A stretch of 64,000 bases of DNA. Source: Parvibaculum sp. Lineage in GTDB: Bacteria; Pseudomonadota; Alphaproteobacteria; Parvibaculales; Parvibaculaceae. The notes beneath the pieces are model-generated. The model saw only the letters and a list, made by a program, of their open reading frames with translations. It did not search any database and was not told the origin of the DNA. Made by a program: the position numbers and the translations under genes. This document shows positions 8,103 to 60,702 of the stretch, piece by piece. Where the stretch lies: NCBI RefSeq assembly GCF_049651025.1, contig NZ_JBASBH010000035.1, positions 3,611 through 67,610 of the forward strand. Direction: 5' to 3'. Each line of letters begins with the position of its first letter. Position 1 is the stretch's first letter.

Positions 8103-8125
8103 TAACCGCCCCTGGCGCCGTATAT

Positions 8126-8163
8126 GTAAAAATATCCGGAGCGAGGGTTCCCCCTCGCTCCGG
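8126..8163 (-). terminator. Hairpin plus T-tract between tpsA and tpsB (candidate attenuator or partial terminator)
   Basis: The minus strand reads CCGGAGCGAGGG-GGAA-CCCTCGCTCCGG followed by ATATTTTTAC. It sits in the 73-nt tpsA-tpsB gap. Confidence 0.5.
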
Positions 8164-8175
8164 CGGTTATGTCTT

Positions 8176-24243: not shown

Positions 24244-24252
24244 GGAAAAATC

Positions 24253-26337: not shown

Positions 26338-26346
26338 GGAAAAGCC

Positions 26347-26946: not shown

Positions 26947-26969
26947 ACGCGTTGACCCGACAGGCATAG

Positions 26970-29672: not shown

Positions 29673-30358
29673 GTGCATCGACGCATATTCTCATCGTCGA
29701 CGATGAACCGCAGATCCGACGCTTCCTGCGCACCAGCCTCGGCGCGCAGGGCTATCGCCTGTCTGAAGCGGCGACCGCCGCCGAGGCGCAAGCGATGGCG
29801 GCGAAAGACGAACCCGACCTCGTCATTCTCGATCTCGGCCTTCCCGACGGCGACGGATTTTCAGTGATCGAGACGTTGCGTGCACATTCGCATGTTCCGA
29901 TCATCGTGCTGTCGGTACGCAGCGACGAGCAGGGCAAGGTCCGCGCACTCGATCTCGGTGCCGACGACTATGTGACGAAGCCCTTCGGCATGGAGGAACT
30001 GGTTGCGCGCGTGCGCACGGCCCTGCGTCACAAACTTCAGGTGCAGGGCGAAGCGCCGATCTTCCGCAGCGGCGATCTCACCGCCGATCTTGTGCGTCGC
30101 CTCATCACTGTTGGTGGCCGGGAAATAAAACTTTCCGCGAAGGAATATGATCTCCTGCGCATTCTCATCATGCATGCAGGCAAGGTGCTGACGCATGGCT
30201 TCCTGCTGCGCGAAGTCTGGGGCCCGGCGCATACGGAAGACGTGCAATATCTCCGCGTCTATATTCGCCAGCTCCGCGAAAAACTCGAAGCCGATCCCAC
30301 CTTGCCGCAATTAATTCTCACCGAGACAGGCGTGGGCTACCGGCTGCGAGCGGAGTGA
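29669..30358 (+). CDS. kdpE: OmpR-family response regulator KdpE
   Basis: 229 aa. Receiver domain ILIVDDEP ... DLVILDLGLPDGDG and a winged-helix C-terminus (GVGYRL). Its start overlaps the kdpD stop. Confidence 0.93.
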   Translation: MSASTHILIVDDEPQIRRFLRTSLGAQGYRLSEAATAAEAQAMAAKDEPDLVILDLGLPDGDGFSVIETLRAHSHVPIIVLSVRSDEQGKVRALDLGADDYVTKPFGMEELVARVRTALRHKLQVQGEAPIFRSGDLTADLVRRLITVGGREIKLSAKEYDLLRILIMHAGKVLTHGFLLREVWGPAHTEDVQYLRVYIRQLREKLEADPTLPQLILTETGVGYRLRAE

Positions 30359-31806: not shown

Positions 31807-32721
31807 CTATTCGGCAGCGGTCTCCATGATGCCCTTCATGACACCGGCGACGGGCTCGTGCCCGTAGGTGTCGCGCTGGTAATATTCAGACTGATGCGTC
31901 GCGGGACGGGCGCCCCAACCAATTTCACACATCCAGCCCGAGGGGTTCATGAAATAGAACGAATACATATGATCGTTGGCATGACGCCCCGGCGCGATCG
32001 CGACGGGAACGTCGTTCTGCCGCACAATTTCGTAAGCGAGACCGACGTCGTCGAAACTCTCCACCTCGATCATCAGGTGGTTGATCCGCTTGGTGCCGGG
32101 CGGGCCGAAAGCGATCGTGTGATCGCGGCTGTTGCAATGCATGAACATGAGTTCGGCTGGCCGAGGAAGGCCCGGAAAGGGAATCTTGTATTCGATGCCA
32201 CCGCGCATGCCGAGCAGCTTGTAGAATTCGTACGTCTTCTCAAGGCCGACCGTCTCGCGCTGGATCAGATGTCCTAGCCCGCCATCGCCGGTTTTGAACT
32301 TGCCATGCATCCGCCGCCCCGGATGAAACGGCTTGTCGAGCTGGAGCTGCGGCCCGTGAAAAATTTCGAGCGGATAGCCGCTGGCATCCTCGAACTTCAT
32401 CAGCTCAAGGACACGGCGATCGTCAGCTTCCTCCGGTGTGCCGATGCGGACTTTCACGCCGGCATCTGAAAGCTGTTTCTGCATCTGACGAAATTCCTCG
32501 ACGCCCGCGACGCGGAATCCGAGATAGTCGACATCGTCATGGCCGTTTTCCTCGACGATGAATCGATGATGCCAATAATCCATGCGGAAATAGCAGCGAC
32601 CCGCCTCGCCTTCATCGACCACTTCCAGTCCGAGTATCCGGGAAGCGTAGTCCTTCCATTTATCGAGGCTCTTGACGCCGAGCCCCATGTAGCCAAGCTC
32701 CGTGACCTGCACCATGCCCAT
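31807..32721 (-). CDS. Type I (VOC-fold, two-domain) Fe(II) extradiol ring-cleavage dioxygenase
   Basis: 304 aa. ELGYMGLGVKSLDKW, LGHLI, HCNSRDHTIAF, INHLMIEV and GRHANDHMYSFYF resemble the BphC/catechol-2,3-dioxygenase family. Confidence 0.85.
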   Translation of the reverse strand: MGMVQVTELGYMGLGVKSLDKWKDYASRILGLEVVDEGEAGRCYFRMDYWHHRFIVEENGHDDVDYLGFRVAGVEEFRQMQKQLSDAGVKVRIGTPEEADDRRVLELMKFEDASGYPLEIFHGPQLQLDKPFHPGRRMHGKFKTGDGGLGHLIQRETVGLEKTYEFYKLLGMRGGIEYKIPFPGLPRPAELMFMHCNSRDHTIAFGPPGTKRINHLMIEVESFDDVGLAYEIVRQNDVPVAIAPGRHANDHMYSFYFMNPSGWMCEIGWGARPATHQSEYYQRDTYGHEPVAGVMKGIMETAAE

Positions 32722-32729
32722 TCCTCCCC

Positions 32730-34193
32730 TCAGGCGAACGATCCTTTGCGGATCGATATGTTCTTGATGTCGCTATAGAAGTCGAAGCTCCAGGTTCCGC
32801 CTTCGCGGCCGATCCCGGAATCCCGGCTTCCGCCGAAAGGCACCGCGAGATCGCGCACGAAGAAGCAATTGACCCAGACCGTGCCCGCTACGACCTTCGA
32901 TGCGAATGCGGTCGCGCGCGCTTCATTCCGGCTGAAGAGCGTCGCGGCAAGGCCGTATCTGGTGCCATTCGCAAGCTCGATCGCCTCATCGTCGGATGAG
33001 AAGTTCTGCCAGGTGAGAACGGGGCCGAAGACTTCGCGCTGCGCGATTTCGAGTTCCGGACTCACGTTGGAAAAAAGCGTCGGCTGGAAATAAAGCTCGC
33101 CGAAATTGGCGCGCGAGCCGCCCCAGAGCGGCACGGCCCCATCTGCCTTGGCGCGGTCGACGAAGCCCGCGACACGATCGAAATGCTCTTTATGAATGAG
33201 CGGTCCGACACGAGTATCCTTGTCACGCGGATCACCGACGATCATGTGGCTCGCGGCGCTGCGAACTTTTTCCAGAAACGGTTCCTCGATCGATTTCTCG
33301 ACCATGATCCGAGTACCGGCAAGGCAGACCTGCCCCGCATTCATGTATTGCGCGGCCACCGTTTGCGCCGCCGCATCGAGATCGGCATCTGCGCAGACGA
33401 TGAAAGGCGACTTTCCGCCAAGCTCCGAACTCATCGGCGTGATGGAGCGCGCCGCTGCCTGACCAATGATTTTCGCCGTGTCCGTCGAGCCCGTAAAGCT
33501 GATGCGATCAACATCGGGATGATTGACAAGCGCATCGCCAGCTTCTTCGCCTATCCCCTGCACGACATTGAGAACGCCTGCGGGAACACCAGCAGCATGG
33601 GCGATATCGGCCATCAGCGAGCAGGTGAGCGGCGCCCATTCCGGCGGCTTGACGACGATGGTGTTGCCAGCGGCGAGCGCGGGGCCAACCTTCCATGTCG
33701 TCAACATCAAGGGCGCATTCCACGGCGTGATCAGTGCCGCGACGCCTGCAGGATCATATCTCACATGATTGACGACCTCGGGCGAGTCGATCGAATGACC
33801 ATCGAGCGTCAGCGCCCAGTCGGCAAAAAATTCGATATTCTGTGCCGCGCGCGGAACGACCCTGTGCACGTTGCCCATGAGCAGCGAACCGTTGTCCATG
33901 GTTTCAACGGCGGCAAGTTCATTTGCGCGCGCCAGAATGCCTTGAGCGAAGCGCTTCAGGATCGGCAAGCGACCTTTGGGACCAAGAGCGGCCCATGCCG
34001 GAAACGCCTTGCGGGCGGCGGCGACAGCCTGATCCACCTCCGCCTTGCCGCCGGCGGCGACATCCGCCAGGTGCGAACCGTCCACCGGCGACATATTGGC
34101 GAACCCCCGTGCAGACGATACGCGCCGCCCGTCGATCCAGTGATCGGTCGAGACCTCGACACCGGCAATATTTGCAACATTCCTCGCCATCAC
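32730..34193 (-). CDS. NAD-dependent aldehyde dehydrogenase; candidate 5-carboxymethyl-2-hydroxymuconate semialdehyde dehydrogenase
   Basis: 487 aa ALDH with ITPWNAPL, FTGSTDTAKII, SELGGKSPFIV and QVCLAGTRI (catalytic Cys). The specific role is inferred from operon context. Confidence 0.85.
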   Translation of the reverse strand: MMARNVANIAGVEVSTDHWIDGRRVSSARGFANMSPVDGSHLADVAAGGKAEVDQAVAAARKAFPAWAALGPKGRLPILKRFAQGILARANELAAVETMDNGSLLMGNVHRVVPRAAQNIEFFADWALTLDGHSIDSPEVVNHVRYDPAGVAALITPWNAPLMLTTWKVGPALAAGNTIVVKPPEWAPLTCSLMADIAHAAGVPAGVLNVVQGIGEEAGDALVNHPDVDRISFTGSTDTAKIIGQAAARSITPMSSELGGKSPFIVCADADLDAAAQTVAAQYMNAGQVCLAGTRIMVEKSIEEPFLEKVRSAASHMIVGDPRDKDTRVGPLIHKEHFDRVAGFVDRAKADGAVPLWGGSRANFGELYFQPTLFSNVSPELEIAQREVFGPVLTWQNFSSDDEAIELANGTRYGLAATLFSRNEARATAFASKVVAGTVWVNCFFVRDLAVPFGGSRDSGIGREGGTWSFDFYSDIKNISIRKGSFA

Positions 34194-35665
34194 ACCGCCT
34201 CCGCAAGCTTGAGTTCCGGGGCGAGCGGCGCGTCTTCCTTCAGGAAACGGTCGACCAGACGATCGGCCCGACCGCGGTCGGCGATCATGTGGGCGACCTG
34301 CTGGTTGCGCGCGCCAGAGGCCAGATAGAAGCGCTCATATTGTTCGCCGCGGCTTGCAAGCGCGCTACCTGTAAAGTCCCAGGCGAGACGGAAGAGGCGG
34401 CTGCGCGTCTCGGCGTCGATACCGTTTGCTCCATGCATGTAGCGATCGATGAGCGGCCGCAAGCCCGGATCTGCAAGCTGCGCTTCGGTCGGCGCGGCCA
34501 ACAGATTGTGCGAACCGAGAAGACGGATGATCTCGTTCACGCGGGGGAACCAGCTCGGCAGCAACGATTTCAGCGCGGTGAGCGGCGCACCGTTCGGGAA
34601 CCAGACACCGTTACCGAACTCATAGGCGTCCTGTTCGGCCGACTGGATGCAGGAGCGCGCGAATTGGCCATAGCTCCACAATTCGCCCAGCATCTGCACG
34701 GATGGCGGCTGCAACCCGCCAATCGCCTCCGTCATGCGCGTTGCGATGCCCCATGCGAATTCGAGCTTGGTCTGTGCCCGGATCATGGTTTGCTGCATCA
34801 CATTCGGAAACCAGCCGGTTGCCATAACCTGATTGTAGACATTGACGTTGCAGTTGATGTGGATGCGGTCTCGCGGGACCTCCACATCGTCAAAGATGAC
34901 AAAGGCATCCTGCTCGTCGAAGCGCGAAGATAGCGGATGGTCGCGCAAGTTAAGCGTGCCGGCGCAGCTGTCACGGCAGATGAATTTGAGGCCGGGCGTG
35001 TTGATGGGGATGCAGAAGGAGAGTGCATAGTCGTGCGCATCGGGGCGCACGGGATGCGCCGGATAGACAGCAAGCTCGTCCGCAAAGGGGGCAAGCGTCG
35101 CCAGAACGCGGGCGCCGCGCACAATGATGCCGTGTTCCGTCTCACCGACCTTATGAAGCGGCACTTCATTCGGCGGACCCACGATATCGCCGGCCGCCTT
35201 GTCGACCGTCGGATGGATGATGGTGTGGGTGAGCGAGATGTCATTGCGGCGCAGGAATTTCTGATAGTTGACGAGGTTCTCCGCGCCCTCCTCATTGCCG
35301 TTCGCGCCCCATTCGTCAGAGCGGCCTGCAAATCCCGCATAGGTCACGTTCATATAGTCTGGCGATCGCCCCATGACGCCGACTGTATATTCCGCATGGC
35401 GCGCCAGCGCCTTGTGGCGGCGCAGAATGTCCTCCTTCGAGCGCGGAATCATGTGGCTGGCATTGATCTTCTCGCCCGTTTCCGGGTCCGGCATCAGGCA
35501 GTCCTCTGCATAGGCGTATTGCAGGTCGAAAAGACCGGCAAGGCCGCGCGCGGCGCCTGCGAAGGCCGGATGATCGACAATATCGGTGACGCGGTCGGAC
35601 CCTACCCAGATCTCGCGGTCGCCCTTCAGACCCTTCAGGAATTCCTTTCCTGTACGTGCCGCCAT
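34190..35665 (-). CDS. HpaB-family (group D) flavin-dependent aromatic monooxygenase, oxygenase component
   Basis: 491 aa from the ATG at 35665 (RBS AAGGGAGGGGAG): MAARTGKEFLKGLKGDREIWVGSDRVTDIVDHPAF ... The profile is typical of 4-hydroxyphenylacetate 3-hydroxylase-like proteins. The 644-aa track ORF extends antisense into the tetR gene and was trimmed. Confidence 0.85.
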   Translation of the reverse strand: MAARTGKEFLKGLKGDREIWVGSDRVTDIVDHPAFAGAARGLAGLFDLQYAYAEDCLMPDPETGEKINASHMIPRSKEDILRRHKALARHAEYTVGVMGRSPDYMNVTYAGFAGRSDEWGANGNEEGAENLVNYQKFLRRNDISLTHTIIHPTVDKAAGDIVGPPNEVPLHKVGETEHGIIVRGARVLATLAPFADELAVYPAHPVRPDAHDYALSFCIPINTPGLKFICRDSCAGTLNLRDHPLSSRFDEQDAFVIFDDVEVPRDRIHINCNVNVYNQVMATGWFPNVMQQTMIRAQTKLEFAWGIATRMTEAIGGLQPPSVQMLGELWSYGQFARSCIQSAEQDAYEFGNGVWFPNGAPLTALKSLLPSWFPRVNEIIRLLGSHNLLAAPTEAQLADPGLRPLIDRYMHGANGIDAETRSRLFRLAWDFTGSALASRGEQYERFYLASGARNQQVAHMIADRGRADRLVDRFLKEDAPLAPELKLAEAV

Positions 35666-35717
35666 GTGCGCTCCCCTCCCTTGAATGTGGGACGTCGCCT
35701 CATGAGTGCGCGCCCGT

Positions 35718-35737
35718 TTATGATTCAATTCATTTAT
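35718..35737. promoter_or_regulatory. Candidate operator, copy 1 of a shared 20-bp motif
   Basis: ttatgattcaattcatttat contains ATGA-N6-TCAT dyad symmetry. It lies in the hpaB/tetR divergent intergenic region and matches 36617-36636 at 17/20 positions. Confidence 0.45.
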
Positions 35738-35878
35738 GAGTACAATCACTTTTAAAAAACGTGTCAAGCGTCGAGTTATATTGCGGCGGCGAAAGGTGCG
35801 ATTGACAACGGGGAGCGATCGGCCAAGTTGTTTCTTCGACGAGAATTCGAGCGAGATTCGCAGGAAGAGCGGTAGGAA

Positions 35879-36589
35879 GTGGCTGAAACCAAGGCGACGA
35901 AGGTACGGAAGGCGGGCGTCCCGCCCATCCCACGCACAGGACGGCGCGAGCGCAATAAACAAGAAAAGCTCGACCGGATTCTTGCCGCCGCCCGCGATCT
36001 TTTTGCCGCCAAGGGCTTCAACGAAACGACCACGCAGGAAATCGCCCAGCGCGCCGATATCGGAACGGGCACGCTGTTCCTCTATGCAAAGACCAAGGAA
36101 GACCTCCTCATCATGGTCTTCCATGACGAAATGATCGAAACGTCACGGACAGCTTTTCGCAAGGTTTCGCCGGACACGCCGCTGATCGATCAGCTCATGC
36201 AGGTCTTCAACTCGATGATCGCCTATCACAATCGCGACTTGCCGCTCGCGCGCGCGCTCATTCGCGAAATCACCGTGCTCTCCCGCCCCGAACGCCGCGA
36301 GGATGTGCGCTCGCTGATGCGCGTTATCTATAGCGGCATCGCCGATCTTCTTGCGGCGACGCAGAAGAAAGAAAAACTACGGACGGACGTCGATCTGATG
36401 ATGGCCGCCGAAAATTTTTTCGGCATCTATTACCTCAGCCTGATCGGCTGGCTCGGCGGACAAACGACGAAGCAGGACTTCGTGAAAAGACTTCGCAGAA
36501 AGCTCACAATCGCCGTCGAGGGGCTGATCGATCGCACCGCCGGAACGCCCGCCGCAGCGAAAAACAGATCGGCGCAAAAAATCAGATGA
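35879..36589 (+). CDS. TetR/AcrR-family transcriptional regulator
   Basis: 236 aa (GTG start). N-terminal HTH ILAAARDLFAAKGFNETTTQEIAQRADIGTGTLFLYAKTKEDLL. Confidence 0.88.
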   Translation: MAETKATKVRKAGVPPIPRTGRRERNKQEKLDRILAAARDLFAAKGFNETTTQEIAQRADIGTGTLFLYAKTKEDLLIMVFHDEMIETSRTAFRKVSPDTPLIDQLMQVFNSMIAYHNRDLPLARALIREITVLSRPERREDVRSLMRVIYSGIADLLAATQKKEKLRTDVDLMMAAENFFGIYYLSLIGWLGGQTTKQDFVKRLRRKLTIAVEGLIDRTAGTPAAAKNRSAQKIR

Positions 36590-36616
36590 TCGCACCCATA
36601 TATTGACTTTAGTCAA

Positions 36617-36636
36617 TTATGATGGAACTCATTTAT
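36617..36636. promoter_or_regulatory. Candidate operator, copy 2 of the shared 20-bp motif, preceded by a perfect palindrome
   Basis: ttatgatggaactcatttat lies 50-69 nt upstream of the aldolase ATG. It is immediately preceded by ATTGACT-TT-AGTCAAT (36602-36617). Confidence 0.45.
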
Positions 36637-36685
36637 ATAGTTGCGCCATGCGAATTCGCACGGGCGCCCAACATGAGAGCAGATC

Positions 36686-37465
36686 ATGTCTTCATCATTG
36701 AAAGCCCGCTGGAAGGCGGGAGAAGTGACGCTCGGCGCCTGGTGCATGATTCCGAATGCACTAACGGCTGAAGCGCTGGCACATGGCGGGTTCGACTGGG
36801 TACTGATCGATATGCAGCATGGCTGCATGGATTATCAGACGGCCCTCGACATGATCCGCGCCATCGATCTTACGTCGGCCATTCCCATCGTGCGCGTGCC
36901 CTGGAACGATCCCGGAATCATCGGCCGCGTTCTCGATGCGGGCGCTCTGGGCGTCGTGATCCCAATGATCCAGACGGTGGAAGATGCGCGCCGCGCAGTT
37001 GAGGCCTGTCTTTATCCGCCGGCAGGCCGCCGCAGTTTTGGCCCTGTGCGCGTCGGCATGCGCGACGGGCCCGGATATTTTGCCGAAGCAAACTCGCGCG
37101 TCGCCGTCATTCCCATGATTGAAACGCTGGAAGCGCTCGCGGCGGTCGAGGATATCGCGGCTGTACCCGGCGTCGACGCTCTCTTTGTCGGCCCGTTCGA
37201 CCTGTCCGTCGCGCTCGGCCTTCCACCGGGCGACAATGACGGCAAGCCCGCCTTCGATGCGGCGATCCGCAAGATTTCGAATGCCGCCAAAGGAGCCGGT
37301 GTGGCGACGGCCGTTCTTTCCAACGCCAAGGTCGCACCGCTCCGCATCGAGCAGGGCTTTCAGATGATTTCCGTCACCACCGATATTTCCGCTCTCACCA
37401 TGGCCACGCGTGCGGACCTTCTGACGGTTCAGGCAAGCACGAAGGGAAACGCACATGCTCGATAA
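36686..37465 (+). CDS. hpaI: HpcH/HpaI-family class II aldolase (2,4-dihydroxyhept-2-ene-1,7-dioate aldolase-like)
   Basis: 259 aa. [30 protein letters not shown] ... IVRVPWNDP ... MIETLEAL ... [11 protein letters not shown]: typical HpaI/HpcH family layout. Confidence 0.85.
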
Positions 37466-38246
37466 AGCGACACGGACAAAAATCGTTACCGATCTTTGCG
37501 GGGTCTATGAGACACGAAAGCCCATACGCCTCCTCACCAAGACCTATCCCGAAATCGAGATCGAGGATGCCTATCGCATTCAGGAAGAATTCGTCGCGCG
37601 CCATGTGAGCAAGGGGGCGCGCATCAAGGGATACAAGGTCGGCCTCACCTCGAAGCCCATGCAGGAAATGGCAGGCTCGACGGAGCCCGATTTCAGCGCC
37701 ATGACCGACGATTTCTTTCTGCCGGAAGACACGCCCCTGCCCGCTGCACGCTTCTTCGCCCCCATGATCGAAATCGAGATCGCCTTCGTCATGAAGCACG
37801 CGTTGAGGGGACCCGGCATTCTACCTGTCGACGTGCTTCGGGCGACGGACTTTGTTCTGCCCGCAATCGAGATCGTCGACTTCCGGCTCGCACGGGAGCC
37901 CGGCATGAATATCATCGACACGGTTGCGGATCTTGCTGCCTGCGGCGCAGTCGTTCTCGGCGCCAATCCCCGGCGGCTCGATGCAATCGACATTCGGCGC
38001 GTGAAGGGCTCGATCATCCGCAATGGCAAGATCGAGCAGGAAGGCGAAGCCTCGGCCGTGCTGGGCAATCCGGTGACCTCGGTCGCCTGGCTCGCGAACA
38101 AGCTCGGCGAATTCGGTGTCACCTTCGAGCCGGGCCACGTCATCCTGACCGGATCCTTCGTTCGCGCCATGCCCGTCAATGCGGGCGACGACATCGTGTG
38201 TCGCTTCGATCAGGGGTTTGGTGATGTCGCAACAAGTTTCATCTGA
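37455..38246 (+). CDS. hpaH: 2-oxohept-3-enedioate / 2-keto-4-pentenoate hydratase family (HpaH/MhpD-like)
   Basis: 263 aa. [32 protein letters not shown] ... [11 protein letters not shown] ... VILTGSF. Its start overlaps the aldolase stop. Confidence 0.85.
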
Positions 38247-40308: not shown

Positions 40309-40743
40309 CTAAAGCCAGGCGACCGCGCCGAGCAGCATGCTGATATGGCCGTCGCCCCATAGCGGAAGCAGGAGGCGGCTATAGTCGCTCGTTCTGTAAT
40401 AGGTCGGCGCATGGCCTTCGACTGTCGCGCTGGCTTGCGACTGGAAAAAGTGGAGCGGGTCATGCGTGTCGATCTCATCGGCAAAGCTGCCCGCAAGCGC
40501 CTTGCCATAGCGCGCGGAAACGTCCCGGCCGACGATGTCGAAGCGAAAGCGTTCGGGCCTGGTGAATGCGGCAACGAGCATCAACCTGCCCTCCAGCCCG
40601 GGCAGGTCGGTCAGCTTCACATCGTCCCAATAGGGCATATCGCTTGCCTGACCACGTATCAGGCCCTTCCAGTAGGCGTGCACCTTGGCGAGATCGTCTT
40701 CGAGATGCGGAGGCAGGATGTAGGCGGAGGCGGCGTTGGTCAT
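40309..40743 (-). CDS. Small stand-alone PAS_5 (PF07310-type) domain protein
   Basis: 144 aa. LAKVHAYWKGLIRGQASDMPYWDDVKLTDLP ... RFRFDIVGRDVSARYGKALAGSF ... YSRLLLPLWGDGHISMLLGAV: a pattern typical of the alphaproteobacterial PAS_5 family. Its ATG overlaps the GH2 stop (ATGA). Confidence 0.75.
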   Translation of the reverse strand: MTNAASAYILPPHLEDDLAKVHAYWKGLIRGQASDMPYWDDVKLTDLPGLEGRLMLVAAFTRPERFRFDIVGRDVSARYGKALAGSFADEIDTHDPLHFFQSQASATVEGHAPTYYRTSDYSRLLLPLWGDGHISMLLGAVAWL

Positions 40744-42791
40744 TTTGGCTTCCTGCTTGCGGGTGATGTGTCGAGCCGTTTTCCGAATTGCTTCGACCCG
40801 TTCTCGGTAAAAGAATCTTCAGTCCATGATTGAAGCGGCGCGTCGCCGAGCGCGCGATAGATGCGTTGCAGATATGCGAAAGCTTTTTTCCTTGCGCCCG
40901 TTTCATCCACGAGACCCTTGCGATTGTAATAGTCCTGATAGGCGGGATGCGTGCGCAGCGGCGAGCGGAAATCCTTGAGCACCCAGGGCGAAAGGCCGCG
41001 AAGCCTGTGGCTCTTCGCCAACATGGCGAGCTGGAGTTCATAGAGCCTGAGCTGGTAGGACTCCGACATCATCGTCTGGTCGTCGCCTTCGAAACCCGCT
41101 TTCGCGTCGGCACCGAATTCCGTAACGATGAGCGGCTTGTCGGCGACAGGGTCGAAGGTCAGTTCCTGCATCAGGACGAGGAACATGCGCGCCATTTCCG
41201 CCTCATCCATCGGTACAGTGCGCGCCCATTGCGCCGCATAGTACCAGCCGAAATATTCGTTCCAGGCAATGACATCCAGATATTCCGCCAATGGATCGTC
41301 GATCGCGAGCGCAGGCGCACGAGCGAGCGTCTGGAGAATTGCAGGATTGCTCGCGTCGACGCCGTCTGCGGCGAAAGCGCTGCGGATGGGCGCCTTGGTC
41401 CGTTCATCGACGGACGGGTCCAGCAGGAGCCGCGCACGGATTGTTGCGACGACAGGTTTGCGCACATCCTTGTCGCGGCCATAGATCGCCGCGGAGACGA
41501 GGCGAGTGCCGTCGAGAGCGCGCACGTCATCAATAAGATTCTTGAGGAATTCGAGGCGCGAAGCGGTTGGCGGCGTTTCATTGGCGACCGACCAGATGAT
41601 GACGCTGGTACGATTTCTGTCGCGCTCGACCATCGTCCGCACTTGCGCCTTTGCATTTTCGAGCGTCGCCGGATTGTCCCAGGAGATCTGCCAATAGACG
41701 GGCGATTCCGACCAGACCAGAAGGCCTAGTTCGTCGGCAAGCCGCGTCACATATTCATTGTGTGGATAGTGCGCGAGCCGCACGAAATTGCAGCCGAGTT
41801 CCACGGCGAGCGAAAGAAGTGCGCGGGCGTCCTCCGGTCCGAAGGCGCTGCCGTCATGGCGCGGGCTTTCTTCATGCGCAGAGATTCCTTTGAGGAAAAC
41901 AGGCGCGCCGTTCAGCAGAATATCGGCCCCGCGCCGCTCGACCATGCGAAAGCCGATGCGGTCGCGGATCGTCTCGCCGTTGAAATTCAATTCAACATCG
42001 TAAAGCTGCGGGTGCGCTGAAGACCACAGGCTTGCCCTGGTGTCGAAGACCGTTTCGGCAAGGCCCTCTGCATCGACGGTTGCGCGCGCCGTTTCTCCGA
42101 GCGCTGGCAGAACGACTTCGATTTCGCGTCCGGTCGTCGCGCCTTCGACATGAAATGTCGCACGGATGCGGCGCGTGGCGAGATCGTCGAGCCTGATCCA
42201 GTAATCGCGGATATAGGGATCGGGGAGCGAGAGAAGCAGAACCTCGCGCTTGATGCCGCCATAGTTCCACCAATCGGTGAGAAGCGTCGGCACGGTTTCC
42301 GCATCGACCCGCGCATCCACCTTGACGATCAGAAAATTGTTTCCGTTCTTCAATGTCTCTGTCACGTCGAAGGCAAAGGGCGTGTAGCCGCCTTCATGCG
42401 TTCCGATGCGCGTGCCGTTGAGCCAGATTTCGGCCCGATAATTGACTGCGCCGAAGTGAAGAAGGTAGCGGCGTCCCGGCTCCCACGCGGCTGCAAAGTC
42501 TCTGCGATACCAGACAGTCGATTCATAAAAGAACAGACGCGCATCCTGCGTGTTCCAGTCGCGGCCTGTCTGGAGCGTGTGCCGGTCGTCGAATGCGAAT
42601 TCGATGAGCTCAAGCCCCTGCGCGCTCTCGCGGCCCTCGGTGAGACCATCAATATTGCGGCCCGGCAACGGCGGATGAAGCCCCGGGCTGCGCGGATCGA
42701 CAATGATGCGCCATGCACCGCCAAGATCGAGATGTGCACGCCCGAAGGGGTTCTGGATCAGAGACGCATCATGAGCTTGTATGGCGGTCAT
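40740..42791 (-). CDS. Glycoside hydrolase family 2 (beta-glucuronidase/beta-galactosidase-like), no signal peptide
   Basis: 683 aa. Sugar-binding domain (VWYRRDF, NGTRIGTHEGGYTPFAFDVT). TIM barrel with acid/base WSVANE and nucleophile region IVTEFGADA. An insertion of about 50 aa lies between them. Confidence 0.85.
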   Translation of the reverse strand: MTAIQAHDASLIQNPFGRAHLDLGGAWRIIVDPRSPGLHPPLPGRNIDGLTEGRESAQGLELIEFAFDDRHTLQTGRDWNTQDARLFFYESTVWYRRDFAAAWEPGRRYLLHFGAVNYRAEIWLNGTRIGTHEGGYTPFAFDVTETLKNGNNFLIVKVDARVDAETVPTLLTDWWNYGGIKREVLLLSLPDPYIRDYWIRLDDLATRRIRATFHVEGATTGREIEVVLPALGETARATVDAEGLAETVFDTRASLWSSAHPQLYDVELNFNGETIRDRIGFRMVERRGADILLNGAPVFLKGISAHEESPRHDGSAFGPEDARALLSLAVELGCNFVRLAHYPHNEYVTRLADELGLLVWSESPVYWQISWDNPATLENAKAQVRTMVERDRNRTSVIIWSVANETPPTASRLEFLKNLIDDVRALDGTRLVSAAIYGRDKDVRKPVVATIRARLLLDPSVDERTKAPIRSAFAADGVDASNPAILQTLARAPALAIDDPLAEYLDVIAWNEYFGWYYAAQWARTVPMDEAEMARMFLVLMQELTFDPVADKPLIVTEFGADAKAGFEGDDQTMMSESYQLRLYELQLAMLAKSHRLRGLSPWVLKDFRSPLRTHPAYQDYYNRKGLVDETGARKKAFAYLQRIYRALGDAPLQSWTEDSFTENGSKQFGKRLDTSPASRKPK

Positions 42792-42795: not shown

Positions 42796-44166
42796 TCAGC
42801 TCACTCTGCGGATGAGGTCCGCATACCAGCGGGCCGACGACTTCGGCGTGCGCTTCAGCGTCTTGAAGTCCACATAGACGAGGCCGAAGCGGTTGGAGAA
42901 GCCTGCGCCCCATTCGAAATTGTCGAGAAGTGACCAGACGAAATAGCCGCGCACATCGGCGCCCGCCTTGACCGCCTCGCCAAGTGCGTGGGTATAGGCG
43001 CGGAGATAGTCGACGCGTTTCTCGTCGAGAATTTCGCCTGCCGCGTTCGGCGCGTCATTATCGCCGCAACCATTCTCCGTCACATAGATGGGAAGTTTGT
43101 AACGCTTTGCCGTGTCGATCAGGATTTCGCGGAAGGCATCGGGATGGATCGGCCAGCCGATGCCGGTATGGGCGGCACTGTCCGGCGACTTGCCCCAGCC
43201 GAAGCCGAGCTGCGCGCCCGCATCGGCGCGCGCATAGATCGGCGAATAATGATTGAGGCCGAACCAGTCGGTCTTGCGGCAGATCTGCGCCATGTCGCCG
43301 GCTTTCTGATAGGGCTCCATGTCGAGCGCGGCGAGCGGCGGATAGGCGGCAAAATTCTGCGGATCGGGGAAAATCAGATTCCAGTGCGTGTCGAGAAGCG
43401 CCGCCGCTTGCGCGTCCTCCGCACTGTCGCTTTCGGGATAGACCTGCTGGCGGTTATGCACGATGCCGATGGAAGCATCGGGGACAAGCGAACGGATCAC
43501 ATCGACGGCGCGGCCATGCGCAAGGTTCAGATGATGGACCGCCTTGAAGTAGGATGCCCTCTCCACGATGCCCGGCGCATTCCAGCCCATGGCATAGCCG
43601 AACATGGTTGAGACGGATGGCTCGTTAAAGGTGGCGAAGCGCTTCACACAGTCGCCGTAGCGGCGCGAGATGAGCGCCGCATAGTCGGCGAACCATCCGG
43701 CTATATCGCGGCTCGTCCAGCCGCCGAGATCGTCCAGCGCTTGCGGCAGATCCCAATGATAGAGGCAGAGCCACGGTTCGATCCCTGCTTCGAGCACGCT
43801 GTCGATCAGACGGTCGTAGAAATCGAGGCCCTTTTCATTGGTAACGCCGCGTCCGAGCGGAAGCACACGCGGCCAGGCAATCGAAAACCGATAGGCTTTC
43901 AAACCGAGATCGCGCATCAATGCAACGTCTTCGGCATAGCGGTGATAATGGTCGCAAGCGACATCGCCCGTGTCGTCATGGGCAATGCGGCCATTCTGGC
44001 GGCAATAGGTGTCCCATATGCTTGCGCCGCGCCCGTCCTCCTTCGCCGCGCCTTCGATCTGATAGCTCGATGTCGACGCACCCCAGAGAAATCCCTTCGG
44101 AAGCACGTTCTTCTGCAACTCGACGGTTGCGGCCTTGGCGTCGGTGACGATGGGGGATTGTGTCAT
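42796..44166 (-). CDS. Glycoside hydrolase family 1 beta-glucosidase, no signal peptide
   Basis: 456 aa. FLWGASTSSYQIEGA, acid/base TFNEP and nucleophile YVTENG motifs. Confidence 0.92.
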   Translation of the reverse strand: MTQSPIVTDAKAATVELQKNVLPKGFLWGASTSSYQIEGAAKEDGRGASIWDTYCRQNGRIAHDDTGDVACDHYHRYAEDVALMRDLGLKAYRFSIAWPRVLPLGRGVTNEKGLDFYDRLIDSVLEAGIEPWLCLYHWDLPQALDDLGGWTSRDIAGWFADYAALISRRYGDCVKRFATFNEPSVSTMFGYAMGWNAPGIVERASYFKAVHHLNLAHGRAVDVIRSLVPDASIGIVHNRQQVYPESDSAEDAQAAALLDTHWNLIFPDPQNFAAYPPLAALDMEPYQKAGDMAQICRKTDWFGLNHYSPIYARADAGAQLGFGWGKSPDSAAHTGIGWPIHPDAFREILIDTAKRYKLPIYVTENGCGDNDAPNAAGEILDEKRVDYLRAYTHALGEAVKAGADVRGYFVWSLLDNFEWGAGFSNRFGLVYVDFKTLKRTPKSSARWYADLIRRVS

Positions 44167-45947
44167 GATCCGTCTTTGCTGATCGGCACGAGGCGTGCGT
44201 TTTCGGCTCTTTCAAGGCAGAGCTTGCGGTCGTGAAATCTTTCGAGCGCGGGGTGAAAACCGATCGTCATGATCGTGGCGTCCGGGAATTCGTGCCGCAA
44301 CGTCTCCATCATTTTCTCTTCACCCTTTGGGTCGAAAGCGTCGCTGGCTTCCTGCATGAATATCCAGCTCGGGCGATGGAGAAAGAGCCGCGCGAATCCG
44401 AGGCGTTGCTGGCCGCGCTGCGTGAGCACCTGATCCCATGCTTCAACATCGCCGAGCCTCATGGTGAGATAGCCGAGCCCAGCATGATCGAGCGCCGCGC
44501 GGATGACATTGTCGTCAAAGAGATCGGGTTCGTCCGGATAGCTGATCGCCGTGCGCAGGGAGCCATGCGGAATGAAGGGGCGTTGCGGCATGAAAAAGAT
44601 GGACCGGTCCTTCGGCAGAAGGACGCGGCCCCTGCCCCACGGCCAGAGCCCGGCGACCACTTTGAAGAGATCGACGGCGGCGTCTGCGTCCCCGTCAATC
44701 AGCACCCGTTCGCCTTCGCGGATTTCAACATCGAATCCGTCGAGAACGTGCGGGCCTTCGGGCCTCGAGATATGCAGATCGCTGATGATGAGTGTCGGTA
44801 TAGCGGCGGTGGCAAATTCGATGCGCTCTTCCATGCCGTCGACAGGTTGTTCGTCTAGCGCGGCGAGGTCGTCATGCAACGACAGAACACGATTGGCGGA
44901 TGCGCTCCACCTTGCCATGTCTGCCAGATTATCGATCGGCCAGGACAGGGCGGAGGTAAGTTTCTGGAACGCCTGAGCCGTCTGCATCAGAACGCCGAGC
45001 GACATGGTGCCGGCAATATATTGCGGGGCGCAAACGAGGATCGGGAAAACCGGAAGCAGCGCGCCATAGCCGGAGGTGAAGAACAGGATCCACGTATAGG
45101 CCAGCGTCTGGCGGCCCCACCATTCGCGAATGTCGGAGAAGAGAGCGAATGACCGCTGCCGTTCCATCTTTTCGCCGCCGACCAGAGCAATCGCTTCGGC
45201 TTGTTCGCGCGCACGGGCGAGGCCGAAACGGAAATTGGCCTCGACCGTTTGCAGCCCGTTCGTCGATCTGACGAGAGGCTGGCCAAGGATAAGTCCCATC
45301 ACAGTGCCTGCACCCGCATAGGCAAAGGCGAGCACAACCATGTAGCCCGGAACATGCAATGACGAGCCGTTCAGGCTGACCGTGGTGCCACCGGCGACGG
45401 AGAGCAGAATGTCGACAAAGCTGCCGAGAATGAGCAGCGAGTAGACCAGCGTATGGCTGAGGCTGATCGCAAGATCGGTAACGATGTTGATGTCGTCAGC
45501 GATGCGGCCGTCGGGATTGTCGTGCTCGCCCGGCGTAAAGGTGAGCCGGTAATGGCGCTTCTCCGACATCCAGCGGTCGATGACATGTCTGGTGAGCCAG
45601 CCGCGCCAACTGATCTGCAGCCGCTTTTTTACCTGCAAATGCATGGCGGCCACGGCCATGGTGAGGCTGAAGATGATGGCGAAAATACCGATCTGGGCGA
45701 GGAAGCGGGAGGTGGATCGCTCGCCAAGGGCGTCGAACAGCGCGCCGTTCCAGTAATTCGTCCAGATGGCGAGGACGACTTGCGCCAAGGTCAACAGCAC
45801 AAGACCGGCTGTGAGGCCGATTGCCTTCCACCGGTCTTCCGTGGTCCAGAAAGGCGCGGCCATGCGGATGAAACGCCGCAAGAATCGATAGCGAGAAAGG
45901 ATCGAGCCTTCCGGGGTGCGGCGGACGATGGGAGCGTCGATCGTCAT
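44163..45947 (-). CDS. SbmA/BacA/YddA-type (ABC_membrane_2) fused permease-NBD protein with degenerate ATPase motifs
   Basis: 594 aa. The TMD resembles YddA/SbmA (FWTTEDRWKA, NPDGRIADDI). In the NBD, Walker A is GDADAAVD instead of GPSGxGKS, the signature is LTQRGQQR instead of LSGGEQQR, and Walker B is WIFMQE instead of hhhhDE. Confidence 0.8.
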   Translation of the reverse strand: MTIDAPIVRRTPEGSILSRYRFLRRFIRMAAPFWTTEDRWKAIGLTAGLVLLTLAQVVLAIWTNYWNGALFDALGERSTSRFLAQIGIFAIIFSLTMAVAAMHLQVKKRLQISWRGWLTRHVIDRWMSEKRHYRLTFTPGEHDNPDGRIADDINIVTDLAISLSHTLVYSLLILGSFVDILLSVAGGTTVSLNGSSLHVPGYMVVLAFAYAGAGTVMGLILGQPLVRSTNGLQTVEANFRFGLARAREQAEAIALVGGEKMERQRSFALFSDIREWWGRQTLAYTWILFFTSGYGALLPVFPILVCAPQYIAGTMSLGVLMQTAQAFQKLTSALSWPIDNLADMARWSASANRVLSLHDDLAALDEQPVDGMEERIEFATAAIPTLIISDLHISRPEGPHVLDGFDVEIREGERVLIDGDADAAVDLFKVVAGLWPWGRGRVLLPKDRSIFFMPQRPFIPHGSLRTAISYPDEPDLFDDNVIRAALDHAGLGYLTMRLGDVEAWDQVLTQRGQQRLGFARLFLHRPSWIFMQEASDAFDPKGEEKMMETLRHEFPDATIMTIGFHPALERFHDRKLCLERAENARLVPISKDGS

Positions 45948-45997: not shown

Positions 45998-48511
45998 CTA
46001 CTCCCTTGTCTTTCCCGGCGTCGAGATAGCGAATTGGCGCCGCAACGGGCCTGCTCCTATCCGGCGGAGACGTGGCCGTGTTGCAGCGTTCGGACTTGTA
46101 CGTTTCGGCGCACGCACTGCTTCGGCGTCCGCAAGGATGGTCATGGTGCGGATGACGCTTTGCGGATTGACGCTGATCGAGTCGATGCCGAGCTTTGCGA
46201 GAAAACGTGCGATCCCGGGGTTATTCGCAGGCGCTTCGCCGCAAATGCCGACATGGCGGCGGTTGCGCTTTGCGCCGGTGACGGCGAGACGCAGCATTTC
46301 CATCATGCCGGGATCTCCCTCGTCGAAGTCGAAGGCGACGATTTCGGAATCGCGGTCGACACCGAGCGTAAGCTGCGTCAGATCGTTCGAGCCGATGGAG
46401 AAACCGTCGAAAAGCTCGGAGAAAGCGTCGATGCGGATCACATTGTTCGGAATCTCGCACATGACAAAAATTTCGAGGCCGTTTTCGCCGCGCTTCAGCC
46501 CGTGTTCGGCCATGCTGGCGATGACTTTGCGCGCCTCTTCTTCGCGGCGGCAGAAGGGAACCATGATCTTGAGATTGTCGAGGCCCATCTTGCCGCGCAC
46601 CCTGGCAAGCGCCGCACATTCAAGCGCGAAGCCCGCCGCATAGGCCTGATGCGTATATCGCGAGGCGCCGCGAAAACCGAGCATGGGATTGGCTTCCTTC
46701 GGTTCGAAAGCCGCGCCCGCGATGAGGCTTGCATATTCGTTCGTCTTGAAGTCGGAGAGCCGGACGATGACCGGCTTTGGATAGAAGGCGGCGGCTATCG
46801 TGCCGACACCTTCCGAAAGTTTCTCGACGAAGAAGTCCGCCGGCTTCTTGTAGCCTCGCGTCAGCGTTTCGATTTTCCTGCGGTCGCTTGCAGATGCCAC
46901 CTTCTTCGGTGCGGCAAGGGCCATGGGATGAACGCCGATATATTCGTTGATGATGAATTCCATCCGCGCAAGGCCGACGCCGTCATTGGGCAGCATGGCT
47001 GTGCGGAAGGCGAGATCGGGATTTCCGAGATTGACCATGATGGCGGTCTTCGGTCGCTTCAGCTTGTCGGTCGTCATCCGCGTGACGTTGAAGGGAACGG
47101 CGCCCTTGTAGATGTGGCCGGTCTCACCCTCGGCGCAGGAGATCGTGACGATCTCACCCGTCTTGATCTTTGCGGTCGCACCTTCCGCACCAATGACCGC
47201 AGGCACGCCCATCTCGCGCGCGACAATGGCGGCGTGGCAAGTGCGGCCGCCATGATCGGTCACGATCGCCGCCGCCTTTTCCAATACGGGTTGCCAGTCA
47301 GGGCTTGTCGTTCGCGCCACCAGAACCTCACTGGGCTTGAATTTGGCGAGGTCTCGCTTGTTCACGATGACGCGGGCCTTGCCGGTCGCGATCTTCTCGC
47401 CGACGGCGCGGCCGGACGCGACGACGGCGCCCTTTCCTTTCAGCGCATATGTTTCAAAAACATTCGTCGCCCGCTGGGAGGCGACCGTCTCGGGCCGCGC
47501 CTGAATGATGTAGAGGCGGCCATCCACTCCGTCCTTCGCCCATTCGATATCCATGGGCATCGGATGGCCTGCTGCCTTCGAGTAATGACCCTCGATCGCC
47601 ATAGCCTGACCGGCAAGGTCCAGCGCCTCGCGGTCGGAAATGCAATAGCGCTCGCGATCGATGCGCGGCGTCTTCACGAGACGCGTGCTTACCTCCTTCT
47701 TCACGCGCGCGTATTTGAGCTTCACTTCCTTCGCTCCGAGCGAGTGGCGAAGAATGGCGCGATGGCCTGCCTTGAAGGTCGGCTTGTGCACATAGAACTC
47801 GTCCGGATCGACCTGACCCTGCACAATCGTTTCGCCAAGGCCATAAGCGCCAGTGATGAAAACAACGTCGCGAAAGCCAGACTCCGTATCCAGCGTGAAC
47901 ATCACACCGCTCGCCGCCATATCCGAGCGCACCATCTTCATGACGGCGACGGAGAGAAAAACCTTGGAATGGGCAAAGCCACTATTATTCCGGTAGACGA
48001 TAGCGCGGTCGGTGAAGATGGACGCAAAGCAGCGGCGACAGGCATCGATCACATGGGGCAAGCCGCTCACATTGAGGAAGCTTTCGTGCTGGCCCGCAAA
48101 ACTTGCAGTCGGCAGGTCTTCGGCAGTGGCGGAACTGCGCACGGCGACCGCGACGTTCTTGCCATATTGCTTCTGCAACGTTGCATAGGCCGTCTCGATC
48201 TGCTGCCTGATTTCGTCCGTTCCCGTTGCTCGGTAAACGATATCGCGCGCCTTGGCGGCGTTGCGGGCGAGCGTCCTGGTATCGGCGCGCTTGAGGCCCT
48301 TGAGGAGCGGCGCGAGCTTTTCCCAGGCCCCCGCCTTGGTCAGCGCGTCGCGATAGGCCCCGGCGGTCAGCGCAAAGCCGTTTGGAACGCGAACGCCCGC
48401 GTCGGATAGCGCGTTGTAAAGCTCGCCAAGCGACGAGGTCTTGCCGCCGACAAGCGATACGTCCGCGACATGGATGTCCTTAAACCAGCGAATGTAATCG
48501 TGATGCGGCAT
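45998..48511 (-). CDS. ppsA: Phosphoenolpyruvate synthase (pyruvate, water dikinase)
   Basis: 837 aa from the ATG at 48511 (RBS GGGGGAGAAG). MPHHDYIRWFKDIHVADVSLVGGKTSSLGEL, phospho-His motif GGRTCHAAIVAREMGVPAV, and a C-terminal PEP-utilizer TIM barrel (FFSIGSNDLTQ-like GFSIGSNDLTQLTLG). The 1261-aa track ORF is an upstream shadow extension. Confidence 0.93.
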   Translation of the reverse strand: MPHHDYIRWFKDIHVADVSLVGGKTSSLGELYNALSDAGVRVPNGFALTAGAYRDALTKAGAWEKLAPLLKGLKRADTRTLARNAAKARDIVYRATGTDEIRQQIETAYATLQKQYGKNVAVAVRSSATAEDLPTASFAGQHESFLNVSGLPHVIDACRRCFASIFTDRAIVYRNNSGFAHSKVFLSVAVMKMVRSDMAASGVMFTLDTESGFRDVVFITGAYGLGETIVQGQVDPDEFYVHKPTFKAGHRAILRHSLGAKEVKLKYARVKKEVSTRLVKTPRIDRERYCISDREALDLAGQAMAIEGHYSKAAGHPMPMDIEWAKDGVDGRLYIIQARPETVASQRATNVFETYALKGKGAVVASGRAVGEKIATGKARVIVNKRDLAKFKPSEVLVARTTSPDWQPVLEKAAAIVTDHGGRTCHAAIVAREMGVPAVIGAEGATAKIKTGEIVTISCAEGETGHIYKGAVPFNVTRMTTDKLKRPKTAIMVNLGNPDLAFRTAMLPNDGVGLARMEFIINEYIGVHPMALAAPKKVASASDRRKIETLTRGYKKPADFFVEKLSEGVGTIAAAFYPKPVIVRLSDFKTNEYASLIAGAAFEPKEANPMLGFRGASRYTHQAYAAGFALECAALARVRGKMGLDNLKIMVPFCRREEEARKVIASMAEHGLKRGENGLEIFVMCEIPNNVIRIDAFSELFDGFSIGSNDLTQLTLGVDRDSEIVAFDFDEGDPGMMEMLRLAVTGAKRNRRHVGICGEAPANNPGIARFLAKLGIDSISVNPQSVIRTMTILADAEAVRAPKRTSPNAATRPRLRRIGAGPLRRQFAISTPGKTRE

Positions 48512-59449: not shown

Positions 59450-59850
59450 GCCCTGTTACCCCTCGAGCCTTTGCCGCGGTCCACAAGCTGGCCAAGATTA
59501 GCGGCAAACAGTCCGGACAATGGGACGACGGTAAATATCCAGGCGCGCAGTACCCGGCTCAATCAGGTTATGCCTGCACGGTGACTTTCATAGCTGAAAA
59601 TGCGCATACGGATAGTTGAGTCAAAATTGCAGGGGAAATCGGCTTGCACCGCCAAGCTGAGCGATTTGACAAATTTCCCGCGGCTGACCGTCGCGGAAAA
59701 TTTACAAACTGACATCTTGTCAATTTGTGCAATGCAGCATATTCTTGATCGAACATCAAAACCAAGAGGCGCTTTGTAAAGCGCACCCCTGCCAGGGACG
59801 GACGACAGGATGGGTTGCCTGTAACCATCTGATCTGGAAGGGATTTAGCC

Positions 59851-60060
59851 ATGCCCGTCGTCCATACGCCCGCAACACACGCCGCGACCCCCGCTACGTC
59901 TTTCGCCGCCGAAACGGTGAGCAAGGTCGGCCTGCTCGGCAAGGAACTGGCAAATGCGTCGAAGGAGTTCGACTTTGGTGAGGCTTTTGCAGCCGCCACC
60001 TATGTCGCGATGAGCTTCTACGGCATCGCGCTTCTGGCCTATGCCGCCCTGCGCTACTGA
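59851..60060 (+). CDS. 69-aa hypothetical protein with a C-terminal TM segment
   Basis: The ATG is preceded by GGAAGGGA. The ORF is followed 28 nt later by a clean intrinsic terminator. No recognisable family. Confidence 0.45.
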   Translation: MPVVHTPATHAATPATSFAAETVSKVGLLGKELANASKEFDFGEAFAAATYVAMSFYGIALLAYAALRY

Positions 60061-60087
60061 CAGATCGGCCTCACAAAAATTTGAATC

Positions 60088-60111
60088 AGCCTCCCTTGCG
60101 GGAGGCTTTTT
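60088..60111 (+). terminator. Intrinsic terminator
   Basis: agcctccc-ttgc-gggaggct followed by TTTTT. Confidence 0.75.
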
Positions 60112-60119
60112 CATCGGCA

Positions 60120-60140
60120 TATAATGAGCAATGCTTATTA
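60120..60140 (+). promoter_or_regulatory. Perfect -10 hexamer overlapping an imperfect palindrome (candidate MarR autoregulatory operator)
   Basis: TATAAT at 60120-60125. TAATGAGCA-A-TGCTTATTA at 60122-60140 (8/9 symmetric). About 40 nt upstream of the marR-family ATG. Confidence 0.4.
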
Positions 60141-60177
60141 AGTGTAGACCCCTTAAACAGCCTTGCTGCCTATATTG

Positions 60178-60684: not shown

Positions 60685-60702
60685 TAAAAAGAGCCATCTC
60701 AG

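Follow-up and report, generated by a model that had tools for sequence, protein, structure and literature searches.

A widespread clade of YddA-like bacterial transporters with a degenerate nucleotide-binding domain beside beta-glycosidase genes

Rv1819c of Mycobacterium tuberculosis, BclA of Bradyrhizobium and SbmA/BacA are the closest characterized relatives of the transporter described here, and all of them take up hydrophilic cargo (PMC13316013, PMC12003926). Transport by BclA needs ATP hydrolysis (PMC12003926). SbmA has neither a nucleotide-binding domain (NBD) nor coupling helices, and possesses an extra transmembrane (TM) segment, TM0, and a ladder of six glutamates; it has been proposed to derive from a YddA-like ancestor through separation of the transmembrane domain (TMD) from the NBD and loss of the latter (PMC13316013). 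Here we describe a gene for a half-transporter with an ATP-binding cassette (ABC) fold and a degenerate NBD, in a 64,000-nucleotide stretch of DNA from Parvibaculum sp. (NCBI RefSeq assembly GCF_049651025.1, contig NZ_JBASBH010000035.1, positions 3,611 to 67,610), which we call the window. An earlier note, made from the letters of this DNA, had described the product as an SbmA/YddA-like protein with an NBD that has lost its catalytic motifs and is nevertheless apparently under selection, and had regarded it as an intermediate between YddA and SbmA. We find that the motif loss is common to a whole family and that the transporter is tightly linked in evolution to a beta-glycosidase without a signal peptide, and sometimes to a glucokinase. 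This link, absent from the earlier note, is the most informative feature of the gene.

ABC transporters are defined by the ATP-driven dimerization of their NBDs. A large, conserved clade in which a presumed homodimer retains the NBD fold and its coupling to the membrane domain, with catalytic motifs missing from both sites, could mean one of two things: that an ABC scaffold can run on other energy with its NBDs as passive mechanics, or that the NBDs have been rebuilt into something new.

Former ATPase motifs and fold of the transporter

Motif positions were fixed by alignment to Rv1819c (6tqe), Escherichia coli YddA and intact relatives (Table 1). In these alignments, Walker A (GxSGxGK[ST] in general) has changed from GRSGAGKT to GDADAA-V, with a loop that is shorter by one residue, and the signature (typically LSGGE) has changed from LSPGE to LTQRG. 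The position of the Walker B Asp is occupied by Gln in this protein and by Glu in most orthologues. Of five sequence hallmarks of a functional ABC ATPase, the protein lacks four (Walker A, signature, Walker B and H-loop) and retains the Q-loop. The loss of catalytic motifs from the NBD of an SbmA/YddA-like protein is thus borne out by alignments to Rv1819c, YddA and intact relatives, and the strings first quoted for it, GDADAAVD, FMPQRP, LTQRGQQR, WIFMQE and TIGFHP, are all present at the positions collected in Table 1. With a shortened P-loop devoid of Lys and Ser/Thr, and with neither the signature nor the Walker B Asp nor the switch His left, the transporter is, to judge from its sequence, very unlikely to bind and hydrolyse ATP in the canonical way.

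Among Pfam matches, ABC_membrane_2 (PF06472) spans residues 39-307 (2e-39; 135.9 bits, with a cutoff of 24.4), and SbmA_BacA (PF05992) is weaker (6e-20; 72 bits against a cutoff of 24). ABC_tran (PF00005) gave no match in the transporter even at an E value of 0.1. The NCBIfam model for SbmA, NF008306, scored 54 bits and did not reach its threshold of 492. Among solved structures, the top match is Rv1819c of M. tuberculosis (6tqe; E 9e-60), which aligns to residues 75-590 with the whole NBD included; the PDB matches that follow are ABCD transporters, and SbmA (7p34) reaches just E 7e-5. A model made with AlphaFold2 (AF2) from an 18-sequence alignment has a mean predicted local distance difference test score (pLDDT) of 76, with values of 80-91 in the NBD blocks, where strands and helices follow the usual order. 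Searches with this model in Foldseek returned Rv1819c at the top, then ABCD1/3/4, and also TM287/288 and TmrAB among the fold matches. The open reading frame (ORF) is uninterrupted and preceded by an AAGGA ribosome-binding site, and its GC content of 0.74 at third codon positions (GC3) versus 0.44 at second positions (GC2) is like that of the neighbor genes. Public sequencing runs that contain the transporter sequence are of metagenomic DNA only.

Family-wide motif loss, selection and the relation to SbmA/BacA

According to precomputed matches, PF00005 is missing in all 120 of the nearest protein clusters (53-99% identity), every one of which has degenerate motifs of the same type. The consensus of these clusters at the former motifs reads GDPAVT-ISLFK, LPLRAQQRLG, WIFIEEATDAFD and SFHPGLE. 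The motif loss is also common to 82 orthologues from named genomes. Close orthologues with an intact Walker A or B, which were to be expected from decay in a single strain, are present neither in the 120 clusters nor among the 82 orthologues. A species-level scan of one genome per species, based on two peptide patterns, one of them HDNPDGRI with the clade-typical DNPDG, identified at least 562 relatives from several classes that have the transporter at full length and without frameshifts. The best 80 of these at least 562 relatives belong to Parvibaculum, the closest named genus with 67-74% identity, and to Pseudomonas, Azotobacter vinelandii, Thauera, Azoarcus, Parazoarcus and Magnetospirillum, in addition to Desulfovibrio, other Desulfobacterota and one metagenome-assembled genome of the Bacteroidota. 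On Azospirillum chromids there are homologues of 46-48% identity in which the P-loop is shortened alike and the Q-loop Gln is replaced by Glu.

In an exhaustive search of representatives at 50% identity, degenerate sequences with the P-loop deletion reach about 35% identity, and fully intact relatives begin at about 41%. The 23 fully degenerate representatives form one clade in a neighbor-joining (NJ) tree of 144 representatives, with the intact P0132 as sister, and this clade is nested among intact YddA-like proteins; given that the tree is without bootstrap support, both the monophyly of the clade and the count of independent losses are provisional. The coupling-helix motif aligns with DNPDQRI of Rv1819c. 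Within it, G147 (DNPDQ to DNPDG) is found in 83% of the degenerate representatives, and Q in 106 of 121 intact relatives. Two residues of the former P-loop stand out in the family, the invariant G419 and D420 with a conservation of at least 90%; in the former signature, R511 is likewise at least 90% conserved, and Q514 and R515 do not vary.

Public annotation names the members "ABC transporter ATP-binding protein/permease" or "SbmA/BacA-like family transporter", and the first of these labels is probably wrong about ATP. In the literature we found no description of a YddA/SbmA clade with a degenerate NBD, nor of the glycosidase link, and the word "degenerate" is absent from the paper on SbmA evolution (PMC13316013) and from a 2025 taxonomic survey of BacA, BclA and ExsE. 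The family is a widespread, previously undescribed bacterial clade of YddA-like transporters with a pseudo-NBD.

Two more YddA-like groups outside the main clade are partly degenerate, one comprising P0168, P0269, P0171, P0204 and P0154 and the other P0221, P0228, P0156, P0189 and P0268. In these proteins Walker A is often present, the signature, Walker B or H-loop is gone, and PF00005 is still matched. The gene contexts of the P0156 and P0168 groups contained nothing informative. In view of these two further groups, NBD degeneration may recur in the YddA-like subfamily.

Mean pairwise identity among the 82 orthologues falls from 62.8% (TMD) through 54.6% (NBD) to 41.5% (linker). The ratio of nonsynonymous to synonymous substitution rates (dN/dS; Nei-Gojobori) of the transporter versus its nearest orthologues, in the Parvibaculum-type genomes L004 and L013, reaches 0.13 in the TMD and 0.16-0.18 in the NBD, and the NBD values in close pairs are 0.01-0.25; these calculations are limited to close pairs and to the nearest orthologues because codon bias compresses dS between distant taxa of high GC. 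The former motif segments are not where the domain varies: their conservation values are 0.69 (Walker A), 0.79 (Q-loop), 0.80 (signature) and 0.80 (Walker B and D-loop), with an NBD mean of 0.67. Among degenerate representatives the TMD is 47% and the NBD 34% identical, and the order is reversed in intact relatives, with 35% in the TMD and 41% in the NBD. Constraint has thus shifted: in the degenerate clade it is weaker on the NBD than on the TMD. Taken together, selection, fold and the coupling helix indicate that the pseudo-NBD is conserved and still wired to the membrane domain.

A relaxed NBD, with 34% identity against 47% in the TMD, is also what would be observed in a decaying gene, in which the domain is a functionless, neutral relic heading for deletion. 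The data contradict this explanation, and we consider it hardly credible: the domain is retained at full length and without frameshifts in at least 562 species-level genomes of several classes, its dN/dS is well under 1, and its fold is confidently predicted. Strain-specific decay and a pseudogene are ruled out by the family-wide loss in combination with purifying selection. In this respect the earlier note was correct in taking the gene to be under selection, as the intact ORF, the family-wide loss and the NBD dN/dS all testify.

The pattern of conservation could alternatively reflect a sensor. The pseudo-NBD would bind a ligand, such as an unhydrolysed nucleotide, a sugar phosphate or another metabolite, in a remodelled pocket and thereby gate the transporter, by a logic like that of SUR or CFTR; its role would then be regulatory and not just structural. 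Few parts of the NBD are conserved better than the former motif segments, D420, R511 and F564-H565 are newly conserved pocket or interface residues, and Q455 and E533 are kept, all of which would be in line with a sensor. However, the one-residue deletion and the loss of Lys and Ser/Thr abolish the phosphate-binding loop, the Q-loop Gln is lost too in the Azospirillum homologues, and the replacement residues vary between subclades of the wider degenerate clade, which argues against one common new ligand. We thus regard a ligand-sensing pseudo-NBD as unlikely. A speculative reading of the same residues is that D420 of the former P-loop and R511 of the former signature might touch across the dimer at the old ATP site.

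Intact YddA-like proteins score a median of 61 bits and a maximum of 102 bits against SbmA; the median of the degenerate clade is 35 bits, and the transporter in the window scores 28.5. The ladder of SbmA is formed by E193, E203, E269, E276, E287 and E378 (PMC13316013), of which only E193 (corresponding to D151, with E in the clade) and E276 (corresponding to E236) have equivalents. An equivalent of TM0 is missing: residue 29 aligns to residue 70 of SbmA, which leaves only about 28 residues ahead of it, 13 of them, at the very N terminus, disordered in the AF2 model. We rejected an SbmA-like glutamate ladder as evidence of proton coupling, the pattern of two positions out of six being equal to that of intact relatives. 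Clade-specific charged TM residues were likewise rejected as a ladder; they are just H103, K107 and R108, and nothing about them is ladder-like. A placement on the SbmA stem was rejected on the score comparison and the NJ tree (no bootstrap).

As the SbmA scores are higher with intact YddA-like proteins than with members of this clade, the term intermediate is appropriate as a functional analogy but not as a phylogenetic position, which is nested among intact proteins. By sequence comparison the family is a parallel lineage that exemplifies "ATPase dead, domain kept", and not an ancestor of SbmA. It bears on the proposal that SbmA/BacA originated from YddA-like transporters by NBD loss (PMC13316013), as the family shows that the functional death of an NBD can come first and stay stable for a very long time.

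The beta-glycosidase neighborhood and a proposed function

Genes next to the transporter were compared in 72 informative loci, each with at least 1.3 kb of sequence downstream of it. The immediately downstream gene encodes a member of glycoside hydrolase (GH) family GH5 in 51 and of GH1 in 10 of these loci, so that at least 61 of the 72 have a glycosidase there; in 2 more, GH5 was detected by tblastn only. In gamma- and betaproteobacteria and Desulfobacterota the downstream neighbor is a GH5 gene of 365-385 codons in convergent orientation to the transporter, and the GH5 itself is 65-88% identical across these groups. It matches exo-beta-1,3-glucanases (8z2w, 1e-61; Candida Exg, 1e-55), and no signal peptide was found at the GH5 N termini. 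The 3' ends of the GH5 and transporter genes typically overlap by 3-14 nt. This tail-to-tail overlap is exactly 14 nt in many genomes of Pseudomonas, Azotobacter, Thauera and Azoarcus and 3-10 nt in others, and the loci that have it include L006, L007, L031, L036-L039, L044, L052, L055, L058, L071, L073 and L075. It is unusual for overlapping convergent genes to be kept across classes, and transcriptional interference or a shared terminator may be involved.

A glucokinase gene (PF02685, 2e-94) adjoins in nine loci. Two distant degenerate members, both of 44% identity, have the same kinds of neighbor: glucokinase is encoded directly upstream of P0121, and GH5 directly downstream of P0125 on the same strand. 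In Azospirillum lipoferum 4B and A. brasilense Sp7, GH1 genes are located beside the transporter homologues. Neither of the two nearest intact relatives examined, P0131 and P0132, has glycosidase or glucokinase neighbors, and no neighbor family other than these is conserved near the transporter loci.

In the window, the start codon of the GH1 gene overlaps the transporter stop codon (ATGA), and the GH2 gene comes next after GH1 in the same operon (Table 1). The transporter-GH1 order is also found in the Parvibaculum-type loci L004 and L009-L013, and the GH2 gene is kept in L004, L009 and L013. A 144-amino-acid ORF is possibly the last gene of the operon, and L004 has an unannotated gene of 151 amino acids at the matching position. 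On the upstream side, the ppsA neighborhood is conserved in Parvibaculum-type genomes only. In L004 and L013, a gene for a TauE/SafE-family membrane protein is located between ppsA and the transporter (5246-6004), and its stop codon overlaps the transporter start; this gene is missing between ppsA and the transporter in the window.

A second ABC or NBD gene is not conserved within 6 kb of the transporter, and 4 of 88 loci have weak, unrelated matches. An adjacent partner NBD or second half-transporter was thus rejected as a candidate, none being conserved within 6 kb in the 88 loci. This result bears on the possibility of an obligate heterodimer with an intact-NBD YddA-like paralogue encoded elsewhere, in which transport would be driven by ATP through the Walker A site of the partner. 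Asymmetric ABC exporters with one noncatalytic site are well known, TM287/288 and TmrAB being among the fold matches obtained here. Moreover, several YddA-like paralogues per organism are often present, and the Azospirillum replicons contain second, more distant matches. Yet every motif is degenerate, including the signature that the site of the partner needs, so that both composite sites would be impaired, and what is conserved next to the transporter is a glycosidase gene and not a partner. We consider such a heterodimer improbable.

With moderate confidence, we favor a homodimer that takes up beta-glucosides or glucan oligosaccharides independently of ATP and in which the pseudo-NBD is a structural or gating module. 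A beta-linked glucoside or gluco-oligosaccharide would be imported by the homodimer through the inner membrane, and the partner hydrolase, a GH5 exo-beta-1,3-glucanase-like enzyme in most lineages and GH1 followed by GH2 in the window, would cleave the cargo to glucose in the cytoplasm. As canonical ATP binding would not be possible, transport would use a force other than ATP, either the proton-motive force or a downhill flux that hydrolysis and phosphorylation in the cytoplasm would maintain. The pair of pseudo-NBDs might serve as a structural dimerization module or as a cytoplasmic gate, possibly with a regulatory role. The GH5 type suggests beta-1,3-linked glucose as a substrate, and the GH2 enzyme in the window suggests uronides as an additional one. 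More tentatively, an ABC-fold family may have switched from ATP to the proton-motive force or to hydrolysis-pulled diffusion, with the dead NBD pair as a gate and a cytoplasmic exo-beta-glucosidase as the other half of a fixed two-gene module that would take up glucosides or cargo derived from beta-glucans.

Several observations weigh against an importer of this kind. Noncanonical nucleotide binding may be compatible with the sequence, in which Q455, E533 and a shifted His are kept and R511 is newly conserved. We saw no sign of proton coupling, the two SbmA ladder glutamates out of six being the same two that occur in ATP-driven relatives, and most residues specific to the clade carry no charge. 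The GH5 gene of most lineages is convergent and not co-transcribed with the transporter, for which reason it is conserved adjacency that supports the functional link. The search for a partner gene covered the 6-kb flanks, and we infer the direction of import solely from the cytoplasmic location of the hydrolase. Many host genera, Thauera, Parvibaculum and Desulfovibrio among them, are not known as sugar users, and an endogenous periplasmic glucan or an environmental glycoconjugate is therefore as plausible a substrate as a dietary sugar.

One Azospirillum locus has a richer context. On plasmid p2 of A. brasilense Sp7 (L098), a 684-amino-acid GT-A glycosyltransferase and a DUF6212 protein are encoded directly upstream of the homologue (2262-5874), and a TPR protein and two GH1 beta-glucosidases downstream, an arrangement suggestive of a locus for the local synthesis and turnover of glycans.

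Such upstream genes would agree with transport in the opposite direction, by an exporter or flippase whose cargo contains a glucoside, for instance a glucan or glycolipid precursor, with the glycosidase trimming or recycling the product instead of catabolizing an imported sugar. Classically, the type IV fold belongs to exporters, and the substrates moved by ABCD relatives are lipidic. By contrast, the closest characterized relatives, Rv1819c, BclA and SbmA/BacA, are importers (PMC13316013, PMC12003926), the adjacent glucokinase genes point to glucose release in the cytoplasm, and uphill export would be harder to energize without ATP. Export thus appears very improbable to us.

If the family has indeed switched its driving force, the YddA scaffold would have passed from primary to secondary transport a second time, independently of SbmA/BacA, and the mechanical role of NBDs once ATP is removed could be studied in a natural system. 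The finding also provides a testable lead, the import of beta-glucosides or beta-glucan oligosaccharides, for an uncharacterized and widespread family.

Table 1. Positions of the transporter, its domains and former motifs, its operon neighbors and other features of the window
Feature	Position in window	Strand	Description
Transporter gene	44163..45947	-	594-amino-acid half-transporter, type IV ABC fold (YddA/Rv1819c/ABCD-like), degenerate NBD
TMD, residues ~30-345	44913..45860	-	six long helices and a predicted periplasmic beta-hairpin, 187-200 (AF2)
Coupling-helix-1 motif EHDNPDGRI, residues 141-149	45501..45527	-	family-invariant columns H142 to I149
Pseudo-NBD, residues ~375-580	44208..44825	-	full-length alignment to Rv1819c and ABCD NBDs
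Former Walker A GDADAAVD, residues 419-426	44670..44693	-	Lys and Ser/Thr gone, one residue deleted
Q-loop FMPQRP, residues 452-457	44577..44594	-	kept; Q455 invariant in alignment A1
Former ABC signature LTQRGQQR, residues 508-515	44403..44426	-	family consensus LPLRAQQR
Former Walker B WIFMQE, residues 528-533	44349..44366	-	Asp to Gln; next Glu (E533) kept
Former H-loop TIGFHP, residues 561-566	44250..44267	-	Phe at the switch-His position, His one residue on
GH1 beta-glucosidase gene	42796..44166	-	no signal peptide; Pfam PF00232, 2.5e-149; PDB beta-glucosidases to 5e-152
GH2 beta-glucuronidase/galacturonidase-like hydrolase gene	40740..42791	-	Pfam GH2 domains; PDB 6d1n, 2e-150, and 7vqm
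144-amino-acid ORF	40309..40743	-	no Pfam match; start overlaps the GH2 stop
ppsA (phosphoenolpyruvate synthase)	45998..48511	-	50 nt upstream of the transporter, same strand
Two-partner secretion pair	6363..12879	-	ShlB/FhaC-type TpsB, 579 amino acids; TpsA exoprotein, 1567 amino acids
kdp cluster	22516..30358	+	KdpA, KdpB and KdpD by Pfam
Aromatic degradation cluster	31807..38246		homoprotocatechuate type
HpaB-like hydroxylase gene	34190..36124	-	longest ORF has ~157 residues before the HpaB_N match (Pfam)
644-amino-acid ORF	59845..61779	-	no Pfam match; GC3 0.64 versus GC2 0.44 (gene-like)

Elsewhere in the window, the TpsA exoprotein of the two-partner secretion pair comprises a TPS domain and seven MBG_2 repeats. 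ORFs of 199 and 229 amino acids occupy the kdpC and kdpE positions of the kdp cluster. The aromatic degradation cluster that adjoins it encodes an extradiol dioxygenase, an aldehyde dehydrogenase, an HpaB-like hydroxylase, an HpaI aldolase and an FAA-hydrolase-family protein; the residues ahead of HpaB_N in the hydroxylase are either an N-terminal extension or the result of a mis-called start.

Comparison with known systems

Similar to SbmA/BacA, the transporter has a homologous TMD and, by inference, has given up ATP as an energy source. Unlike SbmA/BacA, it retains an NBD-fold domain of about 210 residues and an invariant coupling helix, and it lacks TM0 and most of the glutamate ladder, of which two of six positions are present. 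With Rv1819c and Bradyrhizobium BclA it shares one TMD (PF06472), one NBD-fold domain and the DNPDxRI coupling-helix motif, at an identity of about 26-30%. However, Rv1819c and BclA have canonical Walker A and B, signature and H-loop motifs, and their gene context is without beta-glycosidases, whereas that of the present family includes them. E. coli YddA (b1496) belongs to the same subfamily (251 bits to the transporter) and has the same domain order, but it keeps the motifs GYSGAGKT, LSSGEKQR, FLDE and TH, and its gene adjoins the TonB-dependent receptor gene yddB and not a glycosidase gene.

The eukaryotic ABCD1/3/4 and plant ABCD1 proteins possess a TMD of the same Pfam family and align over the full length (E 1e-45 to 1e-25), but they are driven by ATP, and their substrates are acyl-CoAs or cobalamin. 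TM287/288, TmrAB, CFTR and SUR provide precedent for degenerate ABC sites that are kept for structural or regulatory reasons. These proteins keep one composite site that is catalytic or binds ATP, whereas in the transporter described here, a presumed homodimer, both sites would be dead.

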